Shown piece by piece: positions 1,784 to 14,304 of a stretch of DNA of 64,000 nt. Within the stretch, counting starts at the first letter, position 1. Each line of letters begins with the position of its first letter. The translations under genes were made by a program, and so were the position numbers. This stretch comes from Escherichia coli (GTDB taxonomy: Bacteria; Pseudomonadota; Gammaproteobacteria; Enterobacterales; Enterobacteriaceae): NCBI RefSeq assembly GCF_016903815.1, contig NZ_CP069973.1; one strand, written 5' to 3'. The notes beneath the pieces were generated by a model. It made no database searches and was not told where the DNA came from. It worked only from the letters and a program-made list of their open reading frames with translations.

Positions 1784-3253
1784 ATGCATATCGATTCGAC
1801 TGAAAAAAATAATAAACAAAAGTTGGGCTTGCTTGCGCTAACATCCATTGTCGTGAGCTCGATGATCGGCAGCGGCGTTGACGGACTCCCCCAGAATATG
1901 GCGGAGAATTCTGCCGTGGGCCCGGTGGCGATAGCATGGATAGTCTGTGGTATCGGCATGTTTTTCATCTCCAGAACTTTTATCGTGCTGTCAAACATTA
2001 GACCTGATCTCCAGTCAGGAGTTTATATGTATGCCCGGGAAGGGTTCGGCCGATTTACGGCATTTAACGTCGCCTGGGGCTACTGGCTGATGACTATATT
2101 CAGCAACGTCGCCTTTGCCATTATGGTGATGGATACGCTGAATTATTTCTTACCAGGTGATTTCAAGGGAGGGAACAATATTCCTTCCGTTATCGGTGCC
2201 TCTTTGCTGATATGGGGATTCAACTTTTTAGTCCTCTCCGGTACCCGCATTGCCGGGTCGATTAACATCGTCGGCACGCTGGCCAAACTGATCCCGCTGG
2301 TGGCCTTTATTATTATTCTCATGCTGTTTATGAAGTACACCACGTTCGCAGATAACGTCTGGGGGCACAGCGCGAGTAAGGCCAGTCAGGACCTAGGCTC
2401 TATTTTCTCACAGGTAACTTCACCGCTTAGCGTGGCACTCTGGAGCTTCATCGGCGTTGAGGGGGCTGTCGCTCTTTCCGGTCGGGCCAAAAATAAACGC
2501 GACGTGGGTAAAGCCACATTCATTGGCTTCGTTGTATCACTGATTATCTGTCTGCTGGTCTCCATCCTGCCGTTTGGCGTGCTGACTCAACATGAGCTCA
2601 GCGCAATTCCAACCCCATCCACCGCCGGTATTCTGAAGATTGTTGTCGGTGAATGGGGGAAGATTATGATTATCTTGGGGGTGCTGATTTCGGTGCTTAC
2701 CAGCTGGCTGGCGTGGACCATCATCTGCGCCGAACTGCCTATGGTGGCCGCGCAGAACGGCACATTCCCGAAACCGTTCAGCAAAAAAAATGTGAAGGGT
2801 TCGGCCTCGGTTTCGCTTTATATAAGCAGTGCGTTTATGCAAATCGTCGTACTTCTGGTCTACTTTTCTAACGATGCCTGGCTTGCAATGCTGGCTATCT
2901 CTACCCTGACCGTTTTACCTGCGTATTTAATGACCACGGCATACCTGTTTAAACTATGTATTAGCGGCGAGTATGCCAGCTATACCACGAATCACAGCCG
3001 CAGCGCCGCGCTGGTCAGCAGTATTATCGGCTTTGTATTCTGCCTGTTTATGTTCTACGCCAGTGAAATCAAATATCTGGCGATGGTTCCGGTGCTGCTT
3101 ACGCTGGGCGTGCCCCTGTTTATCTGGGCAAGAAAAAAAGACGATCGCGCAGATAAAATATTTACGCTACGCGAACTGGCATTTTTTATTTTACTGCTGG
3201 TCCTCGACATCATTGTTTTTATTCTACTGCATTATAAAACGATACATTTTTAG
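1784..3253 (+). CDS. ArcD/YdgI-type basic amino acid/polyamine antiporter (APC superfamily, APA family), copy 1
   Basis: 489 aa; ATG at 1784 with AAGAG RBS; N-terminal KLGLLALTSIVVSSMIGSGV..LPQNMA motif and GVEGAVALSGRAKNKRDVGKAT motif typical of ArcD/YdgI arginine:ornithine-type exchangers; multiple hydrophobic helices. Confidence 0.85.
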   Translation: MHIDSTEKNNKQKLGLLALTSIVVSSMIGSGVDGLPQNMAENSAVGPVAIAWIVCGIGMFFISRTFIVLSNIRPDLQSGVYMYAREGFGRFTAFNVAWGYWLMTIFSNVAFAIMVMDTLNYFLPGDFKGGNNIPSVIGASLLIWGFNFLVLSGTRIAGSINIVGTLAKLIPLVAFIIILMLFMKYTTFADNVWGHSASKASQDLGSIFSQVTSPLSVALWSFIGVEGAVALSGRAKNKRDVGKATFIGFVVSLIICLLVSILPFGVLTQHELSAIPTPSTAGILKIVVGEWGKIMIILGVLISVLTSWLAWTIICAELPMVAAQNGTFPKPFSKKNVKGSASVSLYISSAFMQIVVLLVYFSNDAWLAMLAISTLTVLPAYLMTTAYLFKLCISGEYASYTTNHSRSAALVSSIIGFVFCLFMFYASEIKYLAMVPVLLTLGVPLFIWARKKDDRADKIFTLRELAFFILLLVLDIIVFILLHYKTIHF

Positions 3254-3357
3254 TCCAGATTAATTCACAGCAAGTTAAGGTGACGATAATGTCTGTTTCT
3301 TGGGCATGACATCCTCACAGTTAAATACTATCTGAACAGTAACAGTGGAGACACCTA

Positions 3358-5727
3358 ATGAAATTTAACCACAATCTTTTATTTATTTCCTCACAATATC
3401 TTGATGGCGACAACCCTTCGCAGCAGGTACTGGAAGAGCTTCAAACCGAACTCGCGGAACGCGGTTTTAAAATTCATATCACGCACCAGATCTCTGATGG
3501 ATTAAAAATCATCGAAAAAAGCCCCCAATACAGCGGGATTGGTTTTTACTGGGAGCCAGACAATCCGACCTTTGCAGAAGAGCTACAGCACTTTATCAGC
3601 ATATTCCGCAAAAGAAATGCCACGACGCCGCTGATAATTTTCTCAGAACAGAATATTACCGATCGTATCCCACTCGACGTCTTAAAAGAGGTCAGCGAAT
3701 ATGTTTATCTGTTCTCTGAATCCGCAGCCTTCACTGCCAATCGACTGTACTCCTTAGTCCACCGCTATGCGGATAAGCTTCTTCCTCCCTACTTTAAAAC
3801 CCTTAAGGACTTTACCGAGGACGGTGACTATTACTGGGACTGCCCGGGGCATATGGGGGGAATGGCCTATCTGAAACATCCTGTTGGCATTGAGTTCATT
3901 AACTTCTTTGGCGAAAACATGATGCGCGCTGATATTGGCGTGGCTACCGCGGAGATGGGGGATTATCTGATCCACGCCGGACCGCCTAAAAAATCGGAAG
4001 AAATTGCGGCCCGACTGTTTGGCTCTGATTGGACCTTCTACGGTGTTTCCGGCTCATCGGGGTCGAACCGTATTGTGGCCCAGGCTGCGGTTGGCGCAGA
4101 TGAAATTGCCATTATTGACCGAAATTGCCACAAGTCACTTAATCATGGCCTGACCTTGTCTCAGGCAAGGCCGGTTTACCTGAAACCTACCCGCAACGCG
4201 TGGGGGCTGATTGGGCCTATCCCGACCGGACGCCTGAAGAAGGCCAGTATTGATGCGCTGGTGGCAAACAGCCGACTGGCATCTGGTGCGGTCAGCCAGT
4301 CCCCGTCCTACGCCGTGGTAACCAACTGCACCTATGATGGCTTCTGTTATAACGTGAACGATGTAGTCAGACACCTGGGTGAAAGCGCACCGCGCATCCA
4401 TTTTGATGAAGCATGGTATGCCTATGCGCGTTTCCATCCGCTATACCAGAGTCGCTATGCAATGGACGCGGAGGAAACGCCAAATCGTCCAACCCTATTC
4501 GCCGTACAGTCCACCCATAAAATGCTGCCCTCACTCTCCATGGCCTCAATGATTCATGTGAAGAAAAGCGATCGCGCGCCGCTTAATTTCGATGACTTTA
4601 ACGATGCCTTTATGATGCACGGCACGACCTCACCCTACTACCCGATCATTGCATCAATTGATGTGGCAGTAAGCATGATGGAGGGTGAATCCGGTTATTC
4701 GCTTGTGCAGGAGTCAATTGAAGAAGCGATTGCCTTCCGTAAAGCCGTGGTCAGCGTCAAGCGCCAGCTCCAGGAGCAGGAAGGTGGTGACGCCTGGTTC
4801 TTCGATGTGCTTCAGCCAACCGAAGTGCAGGACAGCGATTCTGGGCAGCGATACAGTTTTGAAGAGGCACCCGTATCGCTGCTGAGCCACAGCGCCGACT
4901 GCTGGTCGCTGCGCTCCGGTGAGCGCTGGCACGGTTTTGCCGATGATGATCTGGTCGAAACCAACAGTATGCTCGATCCAGTAAAAGTGACCCTGACTTG
5001 TCCAGGGATCGGCCCGAAGGGAGAATACCAGAAAAACGGTATTCCGGGATATTTGCTGACCCGTTTTCTCGATGACCGTCGCATTGAAATTGCCCGTACT
5101 GGTGACTACACCGTGCTGATCCTGTTCTCCGTCGGCATCACCAAAGGCAAATGGGGAACTCTGATTGAAAGCCTGCTGGCCTTTAAAAAGCATTACGACA
5201 ATGACGATCTGGCCACAGATGCTATCCCGTCGCTGAAAGCGCATTCTCCACACTACGACACGCTAACCCTCAAGGAGCTATGTCAGATAATGCATGAAAA
5301 AATGGATGAGCTGGAGCTGATGTCGCATATCAACGACGCGGTAAACACCGATCCGGAACCAGTTATGACCCCGGCAGAAGCCTATCAGAAAGTCGTACGC
5401 TACAAAACCGAGCATATCCGGCTGGATGATTTTAGCGGCAGAATTGCCGCCAGCATGCTCGTCCCATATCCCCCAGGCATTCCTGTACTGATGCCGGGCG
5501 AACGGATGCCGCAAGGTAACAAGGGCATTATTGGCTATCTGCGCGCCCTGCAGGAATTCGATAAGCAATTCCCAGGTTTTGAACATGAGATCCAGGGCGT
5601 TAACGTCGATGAAGACGGGGACTTCTGGGTCAGAGCGATTGTGGAAGAAGAACGCGATGGGCAGTCGCTACCCGGCCACATAACCTTTAAACGCCAGGTC
5701 TCTGGTATTAAAAAGGGCCGCCAGTAG
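3358..5727 (+). CDS. PLP-dependent Orn/Lys/Arg decarboxylase, AdiA/CadA/SpeF family (fold-I, with N-terminal wing domain); substrate not assignable from sequence
   Basis: 789 aa; GGAGA RBS before ATG 3358; conserved blocks shared with E. coli AdiA (YWDCPGHMGG, SGSSGSNRIV, DRNCHKSLNHGL, VVTNCTYDGFCYN, HFDEAWYAYARF, STHKML with the PLP-binding Lys, ASIDVAVSMMEG, MLDPVKVTL, KGKWGTL, PYPPGIPVLMPGE, FPGFEHE). Longer than AdiA (755 aa) with a distinct C-terminal tail. Confidence 0.9.
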   Translation: MKFNHNLLFISSQYLDGDNPSQQVLEELQTELAERGFKIHITHQISDGLKIIEKSPQYSGIGFYWEPDNPTFAEELQHFISIFRKRNATTPLIIFSEQNITDRIPLDVLKEVSEYVYLFSESAAFTANRLYSLVHRYADKLLPPYFKTLKDFTEDGDYYWDCPGHMGGMAYLKHPVGIEFINFFGENMMRADIGVATAEMGDYLIHAGPPKKSEEIAARLFGSDWTFYGVSGSSGSNRIVAQAAVGADEIAIIDRNCHKSLNHGLTLSQARPVYLKPTRNAWGLIGPIPTGRLKKASIDALVANSRLASGAVSQSPSYAVVTNCTYDGFCYNVNDVVRHLGESAPRIHFDEAWYAYARFHPLYQSRYAMDAEETPNRPTLFAVQSTHKMLPSLSMASMIHVKKSDRAPLNFDDFNDAFMMHGTTSPYYPIIASIDVAVSMMEGESGYSLVQESIEEAIAFRKAVVSVKRQLQEQEGGDAWFFDVLQPTEVQDSDSGQRYSFEEAPVSLLSHSADCWSLRSGERWHGFADDDLVETNSMLDPVKVTLTCPGIGPKGEYQKNGIPGYLLTRFLDDRRIEIARTGDYTVLILFSVGITKGKWGTLIESLLAFKKHYDNDDLATDAIPSLKAHSPHYDTLTLKELCQIMHEKMDELELMSHINDAVNTDPEPVMTPAEAYQKVVRYKTEHIRLDDFSGRIAASMLVPYPPGIPVLMPGERMPQGNKGIIGYLRALQEFDKQFPGFEHEIQGVNVDEDGDFWVRAIVEEERDGQSLPGHITFKRQVSGIKKGRQ

Positions 5728-5745
5728 GCGGGGGAAAGAACAATA

Positions 5746-5771
5746 CCGTCGGATCGCCTGCAATCCGACGG
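5746..5771 (+). promoter_or_regulatory. Intercistronic stem-loop between the decarboxylase and the downstream antiporter (possible attenuator or mRNA processing/stability element)
   Basis: Inverted repeat CCGTCGGAT-cgcctgca-ATCCGACGG (9-bp stem) in the 74-bp spacer; no strong T-run follows. Confidence 0.4.
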
Positions 5772-5801
5772 CAATATTATAGAATAGCTGAGGGAAACGT
5801 T

Positions 5802-7301
5802 ATGGCAGAGCAATCTTCAGATGTAAAAAATAGTGACAATAGCGCCGGAGGACATAAGCTGGGGCTTATATCCCTCATCGCTATTGTCGTTAGCTCCATG
5901 CTGGGAGGCGGCGTTTTCAGTCTGCCGCAAAACACGGCGGCCTCTTCTGCACTAGGGCCAGTAATCATTGCATGGATTATTGCCGGGATCGGTATTTATT
6001 TTATCGCAAACTCCTTTCGCGTACTATCAGATCTGCGCCCGGACCTTCAGGCTGGAGTGTATATGTATGCCCAGGAAGGTTTTGGTTCCTTTATTGGCTT
6101 TAACGTCGCCTGGGGCTACTGGCTGATGACCGCATTTGGCAACGTTGCCTTTGCGGTAATTTTAATGGATGCTTTTAATCAGTTTATGCCGGGGGTTTTT
6201 ACGGATGGTAATAATCTGAACTCCATTATCTGCGGCTCAGTGCTGATCTGGGGCTATAATTTTCTTGTTCTGTCCGGGACGAAAGTGGCCGGATTTGTTA
6301 ACACCTTGGGAACCATCGCCAAGCTCGTCCCTCTGATCCTATTCGTATTACTGCTGGGTGTGCTGATCGATTATTCGGACCTGTTTAAAAACTTTTGGGG
6401 AGAATCACCCGCGATCCTCAGTGGCAACGGAAATGACGCCGCACCAGTATCGCTGCTGTCTCAGATTCTGGCACCGATGACCGTAACGCTCTGGGCCTTT
6501 ATTGGCGTCGAGGGAGCGGTTGTTCTATCCGGACGTGCCAAAAATAAACAGGACGTAGGGAAAGCCACACTGATCGGCTTTCTGCTGGCGCTAATTATTT
6601 ATATGTTAATGTCCATTCTGCCGTTCGGTGTAATGCCTCAGGCAGAACTAGCGCAGGTCAGTAACCCCTCTACCGCAGGCGTGCTCGCCCACGTTGTCGG
6701 TCAGTGGGGCGACTGGCTGATGAGCGCGGGGCTGATTATTTCTGTTCTGGCCGGCTGGCTTGCCTGGACCATGCTATGCGCTGAAATACCGATGGTAGCA
6801 GGACAGAAAGGCGCTTTCCCGCGCGCGTTTGCCCGAACGAACAGTAAACAGGCGGCCAATGTGTCACTGTGGGTTAGTAGCTTTGTGATGCAGGCGGCCA
6901 TGTTACTTGTTTATTTTTCAAATAATGCTTGGACCACCATGTATAATATCAGTGCGCTGATGGTTGTTCCGGCCTATATTACCACCACGCTGTATCTGAC
7001 CAGTATTTGCAGAAACGGAAAATATGATCAGTATGCAAAAAAAGGCCGCAGGCTGGCTTTGTCCAGCGGTGTTTTAGGCTCGCTATTCTGTCTGTTTATT
7101 CTTTACGCCAGCCAGATTGAGTATGTTGCATTAATTCCTATCCTGTTGACCTGTGGTCTGCCGGTCTTTATCTGGTCAAGAAAAGAAAAAAATGATGGTC
7201 AGCCGATATTTACCAAAAAAGAGCTGATTTATCTGATTATGCTGTTGCTGTGCGATATTATCGTCGTTGCCCTGTTTATTGGTGGATATTTAAAGGTATA
7301 A
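5802..7301 (+). CDS. ArcD/YdgI-type basic amino acid/polyamine antiporter (APA family), copy 2 (paralog of 1784..3253)
   Basis: 499 aa; GAGGGA RBS; same motifs as copy 1 (KLGLISLIAIVVSSMLGGGVFSLPQNTA, GVYMYAQEGFG, FNVAWGYWLMT, GVEGAVVLSGRAKNKQDVGKAT) with long collinear identity. Confidence 0.85.
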   Translation: MAEQSSDVKNSDNSAGGHKLGLISLIAIVVSSMLGGGVFSLPQNTAASSALGPVIIAWIIAGIGIYFIANSFRVLSDLRPDLQAGVYMYAQEGFGSFIGFNVAWGYWLMTAFGNVAFAVILMDAFNQFMPGVFTDGNNLNSIICGSVLIWGYNFLVLSGTKVAGFVNTLGTIAKLVPLILFVLLLGVLIDYSDLFKNFWGESPAILSGNGNDAAPVSLLSQILAPMTVTLWAFIGVEGAVVLSGRAKNKQDVGKATLIGFLLALIIYMLMSILPFGVMPQAELAQVSNPSTAGVLAHVVGQWGDWLMSAGLIISVLAGWLAWTMLCAEIPMVAGQKGAFPRAFARTNSKQAANVSLWVSSFVMQAAMLLVYFSNNAWTTMYNISALMVVPAYITTTLYLTSICRNGKYDQYAKKGRRLALSSGVLGSLFCLFILYASQIEYVALIPILLTCGLPVFIWSRKEKNDGQPIFTKKELIYLIMLLLCDIIVVALFIGGYLKV

Positions 7302-7443: not shown

Positions 7444-7719
7444 GTGGCTTCCATTTCCATCAGATGTCCTTCCTGCTCCGCTACTGAAGGCGTGGTGCGT
7501 AACGGCAAAAGCACTGCCGGACATCAGCGCTATCTCTGCTCTCACTGCCGTAAAACATGGCAACTGCAGTTCACTTACACCGCTTCTCAACCCGGTACGC
7601 ACCAGAAAATCATTGATATGGCCATGAATGGCGTTGGATGCCGGGCAACTGCCCGCATTATGGGCGTTGGCCTCAACACGATTTTACGTCACTTAAAAAA
7701 CTCAGGCCGCAGTCGGTAA
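7444..7719 (+). CDS. insA: IS1 InsA
   Basis: 91 aa [91 protein letters not shown]. Confidence 0.95.
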
Positions 7720-8141
7720 CCTCGCGCATACAGCCGGGCAGTGACGTCATCGTCTGCGCGGAAATGGGCGAACAGTGGGGCTATGTCGGGGCTAAATCGC
7801 GCCAGCGCTGGCTGTTTTACGCGTATGACAGGCTCCGGAAGACGGTTGTTGCGCACGTATTCGGTGAACGCACGATGGCGACGCTGGGGCGTCTTATGAG
7901 CCTGCTGTCACCCTTTGACGTGGTGATATGGATGACGGATGGCTGGCCGCTGTATGAATCCCGCCTGAAGGGAAAGCTGCACGTAATCAGCAAGCGATAT
8001 ACGCAGCGAATTGAGCGGCATAACCTGAATCTGAGGCAGCACCTGGCACGGCTGGGACGGAAGTCGCTGTCGTTCTCAAAATCGGTGGAGCTGCATGACA
8101 AAGTCATCGGGCATTATCTGAACATAAAACACTATCAATAA
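7638..8141 (+). CDS. insB: IS1 InsB (expressed as InsAB' fusion by frameshift)
   Basis: 167 aa ORF ...[40 protein letters not shown]...[10 protein letters not shown], canonical IS1 InsB. Confidence 0.95.
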
Positions 8142-8156
8142 GTTGGAGTCATTATC

Positions 8157-8949
8157 TAACCGTAGCGTTTATTACGCGCAGGTGACGCGTCCTGTTAATG
8201 TGCAAAGAATTGACTTACGAAGTCGGGTGAGGGCTTTCCATGCTCTCAGTCGTGGCGCAGCCGGTAGCCGTGCAATCAGTCAGATGTTGCGCCAGAGTAG
8301 CGTTGATGCAGGCCGGTGGCTGGCACGACGACTGATGCGGGAATGCGGGCTGACAAGTCGACAGATGGTTAAACATCACTACCGGGTCAACGAAGACAAA
8401 AGTCCGCCATTGCCAAATTTACTGAACCGGCAATTTCACCCCGCCGCACCAGACCGCGTCTGGTGCGGCGACATCAGTTTTATTCGCCTGCATGACAAAT
8501 GGTGTTAGCTCGCGCTCGTTGTTGATTTATATTCACGGCGGATTACCGGTTCAGCCCTCTCATTAACCGCTGATGCTGAGTTGGTGTGTAGGGCTTTGCG
8601 TAATGCACTGGAAACACGATCACGTGATGGCCGTCTGCTGTTTCATTCAGATCAAGGTGTTCAGTATAAAAGCAATAAATACAGAAAGTTACTCTGGCGT
8701 TATGGGGTAATGCAAAGTATGAGTTGCAGAGGGAATGGCCTGGATAATTCGCCGATGGAAAGAGTCTTTCGCAGCCTTAAAAATGAATGGCTTCCGAAAG
8801 GTGGTTATGGTGATTTTATCCATGCGGTACGTGATATAAACCAGTGGATTAATGGTTATTACAACGTTTATCGACCTCACACGAACAACGATGGTTTACC
8901 GCCTTGCTTACATGAAGAAAAGTGGAAACAGGTTATTCCGGTGTCCTGA
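8157..8949 (+). pseudogene. IS3-family transposase OrfB remnant: 5' part (OrfA and start of OrfB) removed by the IS1 insertion, plus an in-frame TAG at 8506-8508
   Basis: Single reading frame translates ...[49 protein letters not shown]...[11 protein letters not shown]...[13 protein letters not shown]...[15 protein letters not shown], collinear with IS3/IS2-type OrfB; the amber codon sits where family members have Tyr (WLYLAVV). 3' end of the element not precisely located (probably within ~40 bp after 8949). Confidence 0.8.
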
Positions 8950-9166
8950 TTTTGTGAACCACTACAATAATCCTTTTTCACAGACTTGTCAGCAGCCAGC
9001 ATTTATGTTCTTTTACCTGCGGGAATTTATCCGTCTGCCTGTCGGGACTACTCTGTCATACAGAAATCAGGTAGGAATAAATTGTAGTGGAAAGTCGATG
9101 TTTACCGGATGACTGATGCGCGCTTGTACACAGACAGTGTGTTTCAGTAATATGGAGAATAATGAA

Positions 9167-9667
9167 ATGAATAACACAGACACATTAGAAAAAATAATCA
9201 GACACCAAAAAAACAAAGACCCCGCATATCCCTTTCGGGAACATTTGTTGATGCAGCTCTGTATTCGCACAAATAAAAGAATGCAGGATAATATATCTGA
9301 ATTTCTGGGGGCGTATGGAATAAATCACTCAGCATATATGGTTCTCACCACATTATTCGCAGCGGAGAACCATTGTCTGTCACCTTCAGAGATAAGCCAG
9401 AAACTTCAGTTTACCAGAACTAATATTACCCGCATTACAGATTTTTTAGAAAAAGCCGGATATGTAAAAAGGACGGATAGCAGGGAGGATCGCCGTGCTA
9501 AAAAAATCAGTCTGACATCTGAAGGTATGTTTTTTATTCAGAGGCTCACTCTTGCACAAAGCATGTATCTGAAAGAAATCTGGGATTATCTGACTCATGA
9601 TGAACAGGAACTGTTTGAAGTCATTAATAAAAAATTACTGGCACATTTTTCTGATGCCAGCTCATAA
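9167..9667 (+). CDS. MarR-family transcriptional regulator, EmrR/MprA-like (possibly a PapX/SfaX-type 17-kDa regulator)
   Basis: ORF 9116..9667; likely start ATG 9167 after GGAGA. Sequence ...YPFREHLLMQLCIRTNKRM...GINHSAYMVLTTLFAAENHCLSPSEISQKLQFTRTNITRITDFLEKAGYVKRTDSREDRRAKKISLTSEG... aligns with EmrR (winged-helix region [28 protein letters not shown]). Surrounded by AT-rich DNA. Confidence 0.8.
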   Translation: MNNTDTLEKIIRHQKNKDPAYPFREHLLMQLCIRTNKRMQDNISEFLGAYGINHSAYMVLTTLFAAENHCLSPSEISQKLQFTRTNITRITDFLEKAGYVKRTDSREDRRAKKISLTSEGMFFIQRLTLAQSMYLKEIWDYLTHDEQELFEVINKKLLAHFSDASS

Positions 9668-10133: not shown

Positions 10134-10637
10134 TTATTGATAGTGTTTTATGTTCAGATAATGCCCGATGACTTTGTCATGCAGCTCCACCGATTTTGAG
10201 AACGACAGCGACTTCCGTCCCAGCCGTGCCAGGTGCTGCCTCAGATTCAGGTTATGCCGCTCAATTCGCTGCGTATATCGCTTGCTGATTACGTGCAGCT
10301 TTCCCTTCAGGCGGGATTCATACAGCGGCCAGCCATCCGTCATCCATATCACCACGTCAAAGGGTGACAGCAGGCTCATAAGACGCCCCAGCGTCGCCAT
10401 CGTGCGTTCACCGAATACGTGCGCAACAACCGTCTTCCGGAGCCTGTCATACGCGTAAAACAGCCAGCGCTGGCGCGATTTAGCCCCGACATAGCCCCAC
10501 TGTTCGCCCATTTCCGCGCAGACGATGACGTCACTGCCCGGCTGTATGCGCGAGGTTACCGACTGCGGCCTGAGTTTTTTAAGTGACGTAAAATCGTGTT
10601 GAGGCCAACGCCCATAATGCGGGCAGTTGCCCGGCAT
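10134..10637 (-). CDS. insB: IS1 InsB
   Basis: 167 aa, identical in translation to the InsB at 7638..8141. Confidence 0.95.
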
Positions 10638-10831
10638 CCAACGCCATTCATGGCCATATCAATGATTTTCTGGTGCGTACCGGGTTGAGAAGCGGTGTAA
10701 GTGAACTGCAGTTGCCATGTTTTACGGCAGTGAGAGCAGAGATAGCGCTGATGTCCGGCAGTGCTTTTGCCGTTACGCACCACGCCTTCAGTAGCTGAAC
10801 AGGAGGGACAGCTGATAGAAACAGAAGCCAC
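10556..10831 (-). CDS. insA: IS1 InsA
   Basis: 91 aa [37 protein letters not shown]..., canonical InsA. Confidence 0.95.
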
Positions 10832-11360
10832 TGGAGCACCTCAAAAACACCATCATACACTAAATCAGTAAGTTGGCAGCATCACCCAATCTGCTGACAG
10901 ACGAAGATAATGAACCCGTTATGGTTTTTAACGGAGAGAGGAATGTACTGGCAGACAGTCTGAAACCACAGCCTCTGATTCTTCCGGTCAAGGGAAAATA
11001 AGCGTAATGTTCATCACCAGATTATGTACGATGAGTTTTCCACTGTTTATAGCAATTATCTTGCTAATAACCAGACAGGAGTAACCAGACCAACCGAAAA
11101 CACCGGGAAGGTGATTACCCGCTGGCAGAGGAAATCCGGTTTTTTTTGATGTCAGCCATAACGTGTTTGACAATAAAGCATCATGAAAGGGTGTTAATGA
11201 GTCCATGGGATAATTCATAAAAATAATTTACTGTGTTATCCTTTTCAAAAGAAATATTCAGAAGATAACCCCTGGCTGACAACCAGGGGAAGGGGGCATT
11301 AACAGTGTTATTATTGGTGAATAAATTATTACTTGTGTGCAGGATACACTAATGCAATAT

Positions 11361-12434
11361 CTACTGATACTGTATGCCAGTATGTTTCATGCCTGCCGCT
11401 GAAAACGGCAATATCCAGGGCCAGACATATTCACCATTCATATTTCTGCATTTCTGTACAATTTTCTCAGAAAGCGTCTCATCAATTCTTTCACGCAACT
11501 TCTCCTGCTGTCTTAAAATACTTTCGCATATTTCGAAATCATCTTCCTGCATCAGCATTTCGGCGCATTTAATGATTTCTGCCCGTTCATGCAGCACAGA
11601 GGAATGATTATAGAGCCAGTTTACAAACAGCAATGCTTCCGGATATTGCCCCCATAACGGGTGGTATGTGGCATAATAATCTTCGGCAGTATCCGGACCG
11701 CCTGAAAAGTTATGCCATACAGCAAGTGGAAATGGATGCAGATTTCCGCACAGTATTTCTGCGATGTAAGTATTTGCCGCAAAGCCGCGACGAAATGCAG
11801 TTGCAGCTTTTACCAGTTCCCCATTAAGAAAATGCAGAAGGCCGAGTTCATACCAGTAAGGTGAAAATTCATCTGCATGTTCCTGCAGTATATGGCGTGC
11901 CTGTTCATGAGCGCCAGTGCGTAACAGTTCCGGTCCCAGTAGCCAGCGTGCACCATGATTATCTTCGGGATTGTAATCCAGTATTTTTTCAATGAGCATG
12001 ATGGCATCCTGATGACGCCGTAAATGTGCATTTGCCAGGATTGCCGCATAGAGGGCACGAAGAAAAGGTCGGTTGTCAGGATGTATCCAGATGATTCTGC
12101 CACTGAAACCTTCAGGGATAAGACGATTGCCAACTGCCAGCCCTTTAAGGGCAGCATTCAGCGCCTTACGCGGGGCATTCTGCTCCAGAAATACGTATGC
12201 CAAGTGAGCGTGTACATCAATAAAGTCATTCTCCTGTCGGGCAAGGCGCCTGAGTTTGTTGATGTAACTTGTTTCGCTGATTTCATCCGCATCGTATGCA
12301 TCAATCAGTTCTTCAAACTCATCCAGCAACGAGCCAAACCAGGTTTCCGGAAATATGAAACAGCCCTGGTTATCGTTCACTTCAAAGCGTAATTTGCCAG
12401 TCATATTCTGAACCTGTAAAAAAGGATGGACCAT
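11361..12434 (-). CDS. Hypothetical protein (island cargo next to integrase); helical-repeat (TPR-like) character, function unknown
   Basis: 357-aa ORF (possible internal start at MTGKL...); no family recognised from memory; lies immediately downstream of the integrase region inside the pheU island. Confidence 0.55.
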   Translation of the reverse strand: MVHPFLQVQNMTGKLRFEVNDNQGCFIFPETWFGSLLDEFEELIDAYDADEISETSYINKLRRLARQENDFIDVHAHLAYVFLEQNAPRKALNAALKGLAVGNRLIPEGFSGRIIWIHPDNRPFLRALYAAILANAHLRRHQDAIMLIEKILDYNPEDNHGARWLLGPELLRTGAHEQARHILQEHADEFSPYWYELGLLHFLNGELVKAATAFRRGFAANTYIAEILCGNLHPFPLAVWHNFSGGPDTAEDYYATYHPLWGQYPEALLFVNWLYNHSSVLHERAEIIKCAEMLMQEDDFEICESILRQQEKLRERIDETLSEKIVQKCRNMNGEYVWPWILPFSAAGMKHTGIQYQ

Positions 12435-12616
12435 AACCTGCAGGCTATAAAAATTGTGATGCCTGGCATCGGTGTCCTTTTATTGTCCGGGATTAACGTT
12501 GCCCATGATAATACAGTGAATTCTGTTCTGTGGTAAGACGTTGAGTTATTGAATGAGAACCTCAGCCTGGCTGATGGTTCCGCCGGCATAAAAAAGAAAT
12601 TGATTGAGGCGGGTGC

Positions 12617-12640
12617 TCTTCCCCTTAAGAGGAAGAGCAT
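12617..12640 (-). terminator. Near-perfect 12-bp inverted repeat just downstream of the integrase stop (possible terminator or protein-binding palindrome)
   Basis: GCTCTTCCCCTT/AAGAGGAAGAGC palindrome with one mismatch; T-run on minus strand is somewhat distal. Confidence 0.35.
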
Positions 12641-12659
12641 GTGTGTAAATGGCGTTCAG

Positions 12660-13925
12660 TCACCTTTTCAGTGGATTGTTAACTTTTGCATATTCAAACG
12701 GACTGATACACTCCTCCCTGTTTGCATCCAGAAAATCTGCCCACCATTGCAGCATAAGCCGACGTTCTTCCAGATGTTCTGCTTTATGAATATACGCGGC
12801 ACGTACTCCGTTGCGCTCCTGATGACTCATCTGACGTTCAACCGCATCTCTTGACCATAAGCCGGATTCAATCAATGCACTGCACGCCATCGCCCGGAAT
12901 CCATGGCCACAGACTTCCTTGGTTGTGTCATACCCCATCACCCTCAGGGCTTTATTTACAGTATTTTCACTGATTGGTTTACGCGGGTCATGTGCACCCG
13001 TAAATATCAGACCATTTTCACCTGCCCATGTCTGAAGTTCTGTCAGTATGGCTACAGCCTGTTTACTGAGTGGCACAAGATGTGGTGTCCGCATCTTGGA
13101 GCCCCGGTGTGAGAATTTTACGCCAGGCAGAGGTTCGCGTTCGGCTGGAATAGTCCACATGGCATTGTCAATATCAATTTCAGACCAGCGGGCATATCTG
13201 AGTTCACTGGAACGAATAAAAACCAGTAAATTCAGCATAACGGCAAGCCGGGTGACAGGCTGGCCTTTATAACCGTCAATACGCGACAGAAGTTCAGGCA
13301 GGCGTGAAAGATTCAGAGCGGGGCGATGCTGGCGTTTTACCGTGGTCAATGCACCAGCCATATCCAGAGCCGGGTTATATCTGATGATGCCAGACTGTAC
13401 GGCGTAACGCATTACAGCAGATATTCTTTGCTGCAGACGACTAGCGATTTCATAAATTTGTTTTGCTTCTGCAGCACGAACAGGGATAAGCAGGTCCGGG
13501 GTATTGAGTGTTGTGATATCCCGGTTGCCGATAAAGGGGAAAACGTGTGTCTCGAGGCTTTTGAGTACTTTATCGCTGTGTGATTGTGCCCATTGTTTAT
13601 TACTGGCATGCCAGCGTCGTGCAATATGTTCAAAAGAGAGCTGTAAATCAGGGACTACTTTTTTAACTCTTTTCTGTTCGCAAGGGTCAATCCCCTCTGA
13701 AATCAGTTTTCGGGCCTCATCCCGTTTTGTACGAGCTTCGGAGAGAGAAACTTCTGGATACACACCAAGTGCCAGAGTCTTCTCCTTACCCAGAATACGA
13801 TAACGGAGACGCCAGTAACGGGAACCATTAGGATGAACCAGCAGGAACATGCCGGCCCCGTCAGTGAGTTTATAAGCCTTGTCAGTGGGCTTTGCAGCCC
13901 GGATTTTTGCGTCAGTCAGTGCCAT
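12660..13925 (-). CDS. P4-type (phage/island) tyrosine integrase, tRNA-associated
   Basis: 421 aa MALTDAKIRAAKPTDKAYKLTDGAGMFLLVHPNGSRYWRLRYR..GKEKTLALGVYPEVSLSEARTKRDEARKLI...; C-terminal region with HGFRAMACSALIESG...R and catalytic-type motifs; adjacent to the 3' end of tRNA-Phe. Confidence 0.93.
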   Translation of the reverse strand: MALTDAKIRAAKPTDKAYKLTDGAGMFLLVHPNGSRYWRLRYRILGKEKTLALGVYPEVSLSEARTKRDEARKLISEGIDPCEQKRVKKVVPDLQLSFEHIARRWHASNKQWAQSHSDKVLKSLETHVFPFIGNRDITTLNTPDLLIPVRAAEAKQIYEIASRLQQRISAVMRYAVQSGIIRYNPALDMAGALTTVKRQHRPALNLSRLPELLSRIDGYKGQPVTRLAVMLNLLVFIRSSELRYARWSEIDIDNAMWTIPAEREPLPGVKFSHRGSKMRTPHLVPLSKQAVAILTELQTWAGENGLIFTGAHDPRKPISENTVNKALRVMGYDTTKEVCGHGFRAMACSALIESGLWSRDAVERQMSHQERNGVRAAYIHKAEHLEERRLMLQWWADFLDANREECISPFEYAKVNNPLKR

Positions 13926-14085
13926 AGTTCAGCCTTCTGAATGCGTTAAAGAGGGTATAAATTCTGTCGAACTGGGGTATGCCCACAATTATACCCACAC
14001 AATGAGGTTGATGTGGGGGGAATCTGGTTGAGTTCGGTAGAATTGATTTGGAGGCAGGACGCTTAAATCGTGGCGTCCTGGAATG

Positions 14086-14110
14086 AAAAACGGACCTCCG
14101 TGGAGGTCCG
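14086..14110 (-). terminator. Rho-independent terminator of pheU
   Basis: Palindrome CGGACCTCCG-TGGAGGTCCG followed (on minus strand) by a T-run, immediately 3' of the tRNA. Confidence 0.7.
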
Positions 14111-14122
14111 TTGATATGAATT

Positions 14123-14198
14123 TGGTGCCCGGACTCGGAATCGAACCAAGGACACGGGGATTTTCAATCCCCTGCTCTACCGACTGAGCTATCCGGGC
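14123..14198 (-). tRNA. pheU: tRNA-Phe(GAA)
   Basis: Reverse complement reads GCCCGGATAGCTCAGTCGGTAGAGCAGGGGATTGAAAATCCCCGTGTCCTTGGTTCGATTCCGAGTCCGGGCACCA (76 nt, CCA end, GAA anticodon). Confidence 0.97.
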
Positions 14199-14304
14199 AA
14201 CGGGGCGCATTAAACCGTAATCTGCACATCTCGTCAACCTAATTTCAGTAAAAGCGATTCAACTGCTTAAGATTGCGGCAAATCGCTTCTTTTCTGTGTT
14301 TCTG

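Follow-up and report, generated by a model that had tools for sequence, protein, structure and literature searches.

The gene beside a pheU island integrase of Escherichia coli is almost certainly sisA, and its predicted TPR-solenoid protein has relatives in many free-living bacteria

The gene lying next to the integrase of a tRNA-Phe island in the window (the whole 64,000-nucleotide stretch of Escherichia coli DNA that was analysed) is, with very little doubt, sisA, the 'shiA-like inflammation suppressor'. This is an already known, named virulence-associated gene, the E. coli paralogue or orthologue of Shigella flexneri shiA, found here in its usual place directly after a tRNA-linked island integrase, and the locus itself is not unusual. 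The original prediction had described the gene as uncharacterized and without a family, which does not stand, as infection phenotypes have been published for it in Shigella and UPEC. Regarding its mode of action, we lean, if only somewhat, towards an adaptor that would act inside the bacterium. What may go beyond the searchable literature is the high-confidence structure, whose nearest solved fold is Rqc1, the spread of the family past pathogens (environmental Alpha- and Betaproteobacteria, Verrucomicrobia, and 36% of complete E. coli genomes), the mosaic, integrase-swapping cassette, and the lack of a conserved neighbour gene.

Identity of the Gene

The window protein is identical to CFT073 AAN82005.1 (named 'ShiA homolog' in UniProt) at 345 of 347 positions, the two substitutions being H67Y and R129Q relative to CFT073, and its best AFDB match is Q6KD66, also a 'ShiA homolog', with 99% identity. 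With the 347-aa S. flexneri protein P0007, which is taken as ShiA by species, length and cluster names without an accession match, it shares 288 of 347 residues (83%). PMC13340028, PMC7545054 and PMC4810123 give the UPEC CFT073 homologues sisA and sisB as 83.3% and 96.8% identical to ShiA, respectively. Our value of 83% for the S. flexneri protein agrees with the published one for SisA and ShiA, and this supports the identity as sisA.

The sisA-specific qPCR primers are those given in PMC3256949 and PMC2978726. The forward primer matches exactly at 12163-12182 (minus strand) and the reverse primer at 11880-11904 (plus strand), so that the pair converges inside the gene with an amplicon of 303 bp; the sisB reverse primer has no match in the window gene. 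The name 'shiA-like inflammation suppressor A' for CFT073 sisA reportedly comes from Lloyd et al. in 2009 (Infect Immun 77:5322), and because the primers match, it is very unlikely that the integrase-adjacent gene at CFT073 pheV differs from the sisA of those authors. The lead to this literature was a plasmid record in which a 56%-identical homologue is labelled "shiA"; the PGAP names "tetratricopeptide repeat protein" and "hypothetical protein" mask the sisA/shiA identity, and under them the gene will go on being taken for an unknown by human and automated readers alike.

The layout of tRNA, integrase, TPR gene and small ORF is common to the window, CFT073 pheV and E. coli B selC. CFT073 SisA (AAN82005.1 / WP_000147023.1) stands in the same order of tRNA-Phe, integrase, gene and small ORF as the window protein, although the CFT073 gene is at pheV (PAI-CFT073-pheV) while the window gene is at pheU, in an ST405-like island, and, unlike in CFT073, has its distal side cut by IS1. 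ShiA (S. flexneri SHI-2, selC) and the E. coli B ECB_03517-type copy/SisB belong to the same family, and are likewise 347 aa long and integrase-adjacent, with 83% identity to SisA for ShiA and 86% for the B copy. At the E. coli B/ShiA-type locus, however, the partner integrase is of another type and the tRNA is selC, versus pheU in the window.

As to the phenotype, ShiA of the S. flexneri SHI-2 island attenuates inflammation according to PMC13340028, PMC7545054 and PMC4810123, and these, together with PMC4229854, describe more host inflammation in animal models upon deletion of shiA, or of sisA and sisB together; the models are rabbit, mouse-lung and mouse-UTI. Expression is also on record, as PMC4229854 reports an approximately 2.5-fold induction of shiA by anaerobiosis in S. 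flexneri M90T, and PMC2978726 reports sisA transcripts in the urine of six out of eight women with UTI. The original prediction had named homology to a housekeeping or phage structural protein, or absence of expression, as outcomes that would count against it; neither was found, and expression is published for both shiA and sisA. No bacterial phenotype of shiA or sisA loss is reported in the literature, in which the in vivo phenotypes are host-directed. In vitro virulence phenotypes are said to have been unchanged in the work of Ingersoll in 2003.

In an EAEC case-control study (PMC3256949), the frequency of shiA did not differ between cases and controls, and the gene had no association with diarrhoea. 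The review PMC7545054 calls ShiA "a putative quinone reductase", which is unsupported by sequence or fold.

Gene Structure and Island Setting

The ORF list of the window contains, as predicted, a minus-strand ORF of 357 aa at 11361..12434, with the qualification that its start is probably the second Met. This second Met is the start used by PGAP for sisA, and homologue alignments begin at approximately residue 11 of the 357-aa query; for both reasons, a product of 347 aa (Table 1) is most likely. There is no strong Shine-Dalgarno sequence at either sisA start. The integrase-sisA spacer contains a sigma-70 promoter-like site, which by its consensus match is a candidate sisA promoter, and a 9-bp, GC-rich terminator-like hairpin, kept in CFT073 save for one base change at its 3' edge, follows approximately 72 nt past the sisA stop; the latter suggests that sisA may be a monocistronic unit. 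In comparison with the E. coli B copy, dN/dS equals 0.14 (dS 0.51), and sisA is under purifying selection. The homologues, the dN/dS value and the published expression make sisA a real gene and not a chance ORF.

Table 1. Coordinates of sisA and of the surrounding features in the window.
Feature	Coordinates	Strand	Basis
sisA CDS, 347 aa, 40-kDa acidic soluble TPR-solenoid protein (predicted)	11361..12404	-	homology, primers, AF2
Candidate sigma-70 promoter-like site TTACCA-17-TATTAT, integrase-sisA spacer	12508..12536	-	consensus scan
Terminator-like hairpin CCCCTGGTTGTCAGCCAGGGG with T-rich tail	11269..11289	-	consensus scan
tRNA-Phe (pheU), island attachment site	14123..14198	-	ARAGORN
P4-type tyrosine integrase, 421 aa	12660..13925	-	ORF; NCBIfam NF007246 domain E 9.6e-75
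Putative 76-aa ORF downstream of sisA, annotated hypothetical (WP_001333708.1)	10988..11218	-	ORF list, PGAP
IS1 copy (InsA/InsB ORFs), distal cut of integrase-sisA module	10134..10882	-	ORF list, CFT073 comparison

The position as first gene after the island integrase was confirmed, with the integrase 225 nt upstream of the 357-aa ORF on the same strand and itself adjoining tRNA-Phe. PGAP names this integrase 'tyrosine-type recombinase/integrase' or 'integrase arm-type DNA-binding domain-containing protein'. The DNA is chromosomal; across 11000-14250 it matches many ST405-like clinical E. coli isolates with 100% identity, and in these identical records dicD, dsbD, cutA, dcuA and aspA are annotated beyond pheU. 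On the distal side, homology to the CFT073 pheV island stops at approximately 10882, which is the start of the IS1 terminal repeat.

The 76-aa ORF, which was considered as a partner of sisA, follows the TPR gene in the pheV island of CFT073 and at selC of E. coli B as well, and has no NCBIfam match. Between loci it differs by two amino acids and by no synonymous change; it lies within a recombination tract of 99-100% identity and therefore carries no substitution signal on selection. This tract comprises the last ~240 nt of sisA plus ~400 nt downstream, where the window and the E. coli B locus are 99-100% identical, while the first 800 nt of sisA have 77-88% nucleotide identity to the E. coli B selC copy and the integrases of the two loci only ~50%. 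From these identities, the integrase-sisA cassette is a mosaic that swaps its integrase within E. coli.

Fold and Protein Properties

The AlphaFold2 model of SisA, built with a 60-sequence family alignment, has a pLDDT of 95.6 and a pTM of 0.91, and is an all-alpha, TPR-like solenoid of 17 helices. It begins with a family-specific beta-hairpin (residues 6-17) and has two short C-terminal strands, which are followed by a nearly invariant PW motif. SisA alone stays sub-threshold against Pfam TPR (best i-E 0.0017), and its TPR matches in the NCBIfam scan are weak and far below the cut-offs. The profile of the 60-sequence family, on the other hand, matches consensus TPR proteins with a full E of 2e-46 (conditional E ~1e-12 and i-E ~2e-7 per TPR domain), and 10-11 of the 60 members pass TPR_16/TPR_19 at E<=0.001. 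By these profile matches and the helical-hairpin solenoid of the model, SisA is assigned to the TPR superfamily, and the TPR-like helical repeat that had been suspected from the sequence is borne out. A PDB sequence search with SisA found nothing, and the profile of the C-terminal third (residues ~208-340) gave nothing significant in the PDB, the best match being Gp316/JADA with an E of 0.08, which is taken as chance.

The conserved motifs of the family alignment are NRPFLRA, NPxDNxG, LRxGFxxNxYIAE and the C-terminal PW. Invariant are NRPFLRA, NPxDNxG, R205-G-F-x-x-N-x-Y-I-A-E, E273-R274 and W330, and the single invariant positions include N111/R112/P113, D148, R205 and N211/Y213 (347-aa numbering). 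The model, the Rqc1/TCF25-like fold described below and these motifs are handles for mutagenesis and for the hunt for partners, and they make the mechanism of ShiA/SisA, a question since 2003, more testable.

SisA has a pI of 5.4 and a mass of 40 kDa, and is acidic and soluble; no catalytic domain was found in it. Its maximal 19-residue hydropathy is 0.88 (family median 0.94), its N-terminus is hydrophilic, and no transmembrane segment, signal peptide or twin-arginine motif was found. Because of the low hydropathy, the hydrophilic N-terminus and the missing twin-arginine motif, SisA is predicted to be a soluble protein of the cytoplasm. The generic bacterial TPR scaffolds (MamA, YrrB, LapB, PilF/PilW and SycD-type chaperones) are likewise all-alpha hairpin solenoids that bind partners, but SisA, unlike them, lacks a membrane anchor, a lipoprotein signal and a partner operon, and it differs further by its own N-terminal beta-hairpin and by a C-terminal third without a detectable PDB relative.

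Distribution, Neighbouring Genes and Proposed Mode of Action

The search of a 5.8-billion-protein set gave 111 homologues, and 92 clusters (50%-identity representatives) were found at E<=1e-30, nearly all of 330-347 aa. Full-length members are present in Morganella, Xenorhabdus, Aeromonas, Pseudomonas, Azovibrio, Massilia and Pseudoduganella, and furthermore in Rhizobium, Agrobacterium, Methylobacterium, Mesorhizobium, Sphingobium, Paracoccus, marine Rhodobacteraceae and Verrucomicrobium, with free-living bacteria carrying relatives at 35-50% identity. Within E. coli, a sisA/shiA-type gene is carried by 1961 of 5426 complete genomes (36%); the best copy is at least 99% identical to the window sisA in 1367 records and 80-90% identical in 578. 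Among these genomes are ABU 83972, a strain from asymptomatic bacteriuria, and derivatives of E. coli B. Carriage in a third of complete E. coli genomes, laboratory B strains included, together with the free-living relatives, raises doubts about sisA as a virulence marker, and the same distribution of sisA/shiA challenges the assumption of a dedicated host-directed role.

Neighbouring genes were compared at 36 loci obtained from a profile search with a 12-sequence alignment, by all-against-all clustering of ORFs, and besides the gene itself no neighbour family recurs in more than 5 of the 36 loci. A recurrent "339-aa ORF" was rejected as a partner; it is an artefact of high-GC DNA, arginine-rich and antisense. 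In many unrelated bacteria the family gene belongs to accessory regions.

TPR solenoids work by binding partner proteins or peptides. We propose that SisA would be an intrabacterial adaptor for protein-protein interaction, whose TPR groove would hold a conserved partner from the bacterium itself; altered bacterial physiology, or altered surface and release of immunostimulatory molecules, might then lower host inflammation indirectly, and no dedicated secreted effector would be needed for the anti-inflammatory effect. We consider this intrabacterial adaptor, with its conserved bacterial partner and indirect effect, slightly better than an even chance. A bacterial partner is the most likely one because the protein is conserved at 35-50% identity, with invariant motifs, in free-living bacteria, and the broad family, the carriage in 36% of E. 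coli including non-pathogens and the absence of a conserved neighbour point to a cytoplasmic adaptor with an indirect effect. Indirect action is also consistent with the members in Azovibrio, Massilia, Rhizobium, Methylobacterium, Sphingobium, Paracoccus, Verrucomicrobium and others, which have no animal host, and with the missing association of shiA with diarrhoea in EAEC. Against the adaptor it should be said that no conserved neighbour points to the partner, that the published in vivo effects concern the host, and that a TCF25-like fold would equally fit a host-directed mimic.

The gene had originally been suspected of an anti-phage role owing to its integrase-proximal position, and the neighbourhoods of the family also bear on this. 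A function in anti-phage defence, or in anti-defence or establishment of a mobile element, with the inflammation phenotype being incidental, would agree with the integrase-proximal position in E. coli islands and with Morganella and Serratia, in which the gene lies in a Tn3-type transposon beside the resolvase. Several loci contain defence-related neighbours: a GajB or an SspE/HEC-06-like gene directly upstream (two loci), MqsRA with a relaxase and an AAA ATPase in Methylobacterium, Fic with an RM methylase and NERD-kinase cluster in Azovibrio, ISL3 and AbiEii in Verrucomicrobium, and a recurrent convergent 410-aa neighbour that is HipA-like as judged by sequence motif. In addition, relaxases adjoin the family gene in three alphaproteobacterial contexts, TraI or VirD2 relaxases are among the neighbours, and the family is found on 80 plasmid records. 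However, the scan with defence HMMs that had been suggested for the gene matched none of the PADLOC-DB v2 families at E<=1 with SisA, the best PHROGs match (phrog_6189, E 0.24 over 16 residues) is not meaningful, and tblastn against 50,697 phage genomes gave no sisA match; anti-defence genes are often phage-borne. SisA is furthermore a solitary TPR protein without an effector domain, several copies stand beside ordinary chromosomal genes (RNase G, LpxK, GGDEF, an S21 paralogue and fimbrial operons), and guilt by association is weak, as no neighbour recurs. The anti-phage role is thus unsupported, and we hold the whole defence or anti-defence reading to be unlikely, although the defence and toxin-antitoxin genes beside some distant homologues leave it a small chance.

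The close company of sisA and integrases raises another possibility, namely that the gene is not cargo but a backbone or accessory factor of the island integration module, modulating the integrase, excision or island expression. Essentially all E. coli sisA-type copies accompany an integrase: the segment of integrase plus sisA is at least 80% covered in 1360 E. coli genomes, against the 1367 records with sisA of at least 99% identity. The cassette occurs after two integrase types, pheU/V-type and selC-type, of ~50% nucleotide identity, and in the Tn3-like elements of Morganella and Serratia the reading frame overlaps that of the resolvase/invertase. Outside Enterobacterales, though, a tyrosine recombinase lies within the flanks examined in just 5 of the 36 loci and a serine recombinase in 1 of 36; divergent E. 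coli copies are found away from integrases, SisA has no DNA-binding domain, and sisA has promoter-like and terminator-like signals of its own, which are consensus matches. On this balance a part in the integration module is quite improbable. An obligate link to a recombinase was rejected, as it fails outside Enterobacterales and for several plasmid and chromosomal copies of E. coli.

Likeness to TCF25/Rqc1

Structure prediction with fold comparison, which had been recommended for this gene, gave not only the TPR solenoid but also, as the closest solved fold, Rqc1/TCF25 (PDB 9ofv chain v; Pfam PF04910). Rqc1 is a eukaryotic ribosome-quality-control subunit with just 15% identity to SisA, and its modelled chain of 531 residues is far longer than the 347 aa of SisA. 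Five of the 60 family members match Pfam Tcf25 at E<=0.001, and 15 do so when the limit is E<=0.1 (best 3.2e-10); it is the top Pfam match in P0070 (1.9e-5), P0107 (4e-7) and P0091 (7.6e-6), where the alignment is co-linear from approximately 45-260 of the protein to approximately 25-267 of the 337 model positions. SisA itself has no Pfam Tcf25 match. When the Tcf25-positive P0091 and P0107 were compared with the PDB by phmmer, generic TPRs and not Rqc1 were retrieved, nor was Rqc1 retrieved from the PDB by the family profile of the C-terminal third. "TCF25/Rqc1-like" is thus to be understood for SisA as a lead and not as membership.

This likeness bears on the question of whether SisA/ShiA could be a released or translocated host effector, whose TCF25/Rqc1-like TPR body would bind ubiquitin or a RING E3 and perturb NF-kB/inflammatory signalling. 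Published mutants alter host inflammation without other reported phenotypes, some family members match Pfam Tcf25, and, as stated in PMC12215860, the C-terminal domain of Rqc1 binds the Ltn1 RING and ubiquitin, while its N-terminal region is required for 60S binding. On the other side, SisA lacks a signal peptide and a transmembrane segment, and no secretion signal can be recognised in it; close relatives abound among free-living bacteria of soil and water, and SisA has neither a Pfam Tcf25 match nor a pairwise sequence link to Rqc1. Neither UPEC CFT073 nor E. coli B is known to have an injectisome, which counts against a translocated effector as well. All things considered, such direct action on the host is distinctly unlikely, and the intrabacterial adaptor is preferred to it.

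A further reading is that ShiA/SisA would be the bacterial counterpart of TCF25/Rqc1, a cytoplasmic TPR protein carried by mobile elements with its primary role inside the bacterium, for example at the ribosome or nascent chain or in the establishment of the element; the suppression of inflammation would in that case come about as a by-product, or by secondary exploitation of a ubiquitin/RING-binding surface. Bacteria are not known to have Ltn1 or ubiquitin. We regard this counterpart as doubtful, though worth keeping in mind. The family range under such a reading would extend from E. coli to soil Alphaproteobacteria.

Exchange of the TPR Cassette

When the window (10960-11600) was aligned with the E. 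coli B selC locus (L099, 7800-8450), the last ~240 nt of sisA and ~400 nt downstream of it were 99-100% identical; the remainder of sisA was 77-88% identical to the selC copy, and the integrases adjoining the two genes shared only ~50% identity. Judged from this alignment, the stretch is a recombination tract shared with the E. coli B selC locus, and the combination of a near-identical 3' tract, a diverged gene remainder and distant integrases indicates that the TPR cassette has been swapped independently of the integrase. The 76-aa ORF downstream of sisA (Table) is also found after the TPR gene in CFT073 (pheV island) and in E. coli B (selC), and had no family match in NCBIfam; since it differs between the loci by two amino acid changes with no synonymous change, it is given as a candidate coding sequence only.

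Homologues of SisA with 55% identity were found in Morganella (L002, 3325-4901) and on a Serratia IncI1 plasmid (L096, 6001-7577), in both cases with 34 nt of overlap between the gene and the beginning of a serine resolvase/invertase gene. The Morganella homologue sits within a Tn3-family transposon, and the arrangement implies co-transcription with the resolvase.

In strain U14A (NZ_CP035516.1, 4726349-4728168), an otherwise identical sisA is cut into two parts by an IS1 insertion, so that this clinical isolate carries a naturally occurring knockout of the gene.

Other Cargo of the Island

Table. Features of the pheU island near sisA.
Feature	Position	Strand	Remark
Cargo module	1784-7301	+	
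Basic amino acid/polyamine antiporter 1	1784-3253	+	NCBIfam, below equivalog cut-off
Orn/Lys/Arg-family decarboxylase	3358-5727	+	NCBIfam, below equivalog cut-off
Basic amino acid/polyamine antiporter 2	5802-7301	+	NCBIfam, below equivalog cut-off
IS1 copy 1	7444-8141	+	Inverted relative to copy 2
IS3-family remnant	8143-8949		Between IS1 copies
MprA/MarR-like regulator	9116-9667		Between IS1 copies; NCBIfam MprA, E 5e-35, below cut-off
IS1 copy 2	10134-10860	-	Inverted relative to copy 1
76-aa ORF	10988-11218	-	Follows sisA

The decarboxylase, flanked on each side by an antiporter, looks like part of an additional acid-resistance-type module, the names of all three genes being family-level and without substrate specificity as the scores are under the cut-offs. 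The two IS1 copies encode identical InsB proteins (167 aa), and the inverted pair with the IS3 remnant and the regulator gene between them resembles a composite transposon.

Ribosome-Related Hints and Annotation

SisA residues 27-87 (window ~12144-12326) gave a sub-threshold Pfam match to PAH_ZNF598 (E 0.019), which is probably due to chance and is mentioned solely for its agreement with the Rqc1 fold match, ZNF598 being another ribosome-quality-control protein. In Rhizobium (L007, 7705-8990; L008, 286-1655), a ribosomal protein S21 paralogue is located 50 nt upstream of a SisA-family gene, a curiosity alongside the Rqc1-like fold of SisA, and an imuB/dnaE2-like mutagenesis cassette, a DNA ligase and an SRAP gene are nearby.

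The annotation of sisA/shiA is inconsistent: RefSeq PGAP labels vary between "hypothetical protein" and "tetratricopeptide repeat protein", and the name shiA collides with that of the K-12 shikimate transporter gene. ShiA was termed "a putative quinone reductase" in a review (PMC7545054), a function that the predicted fold does not support.
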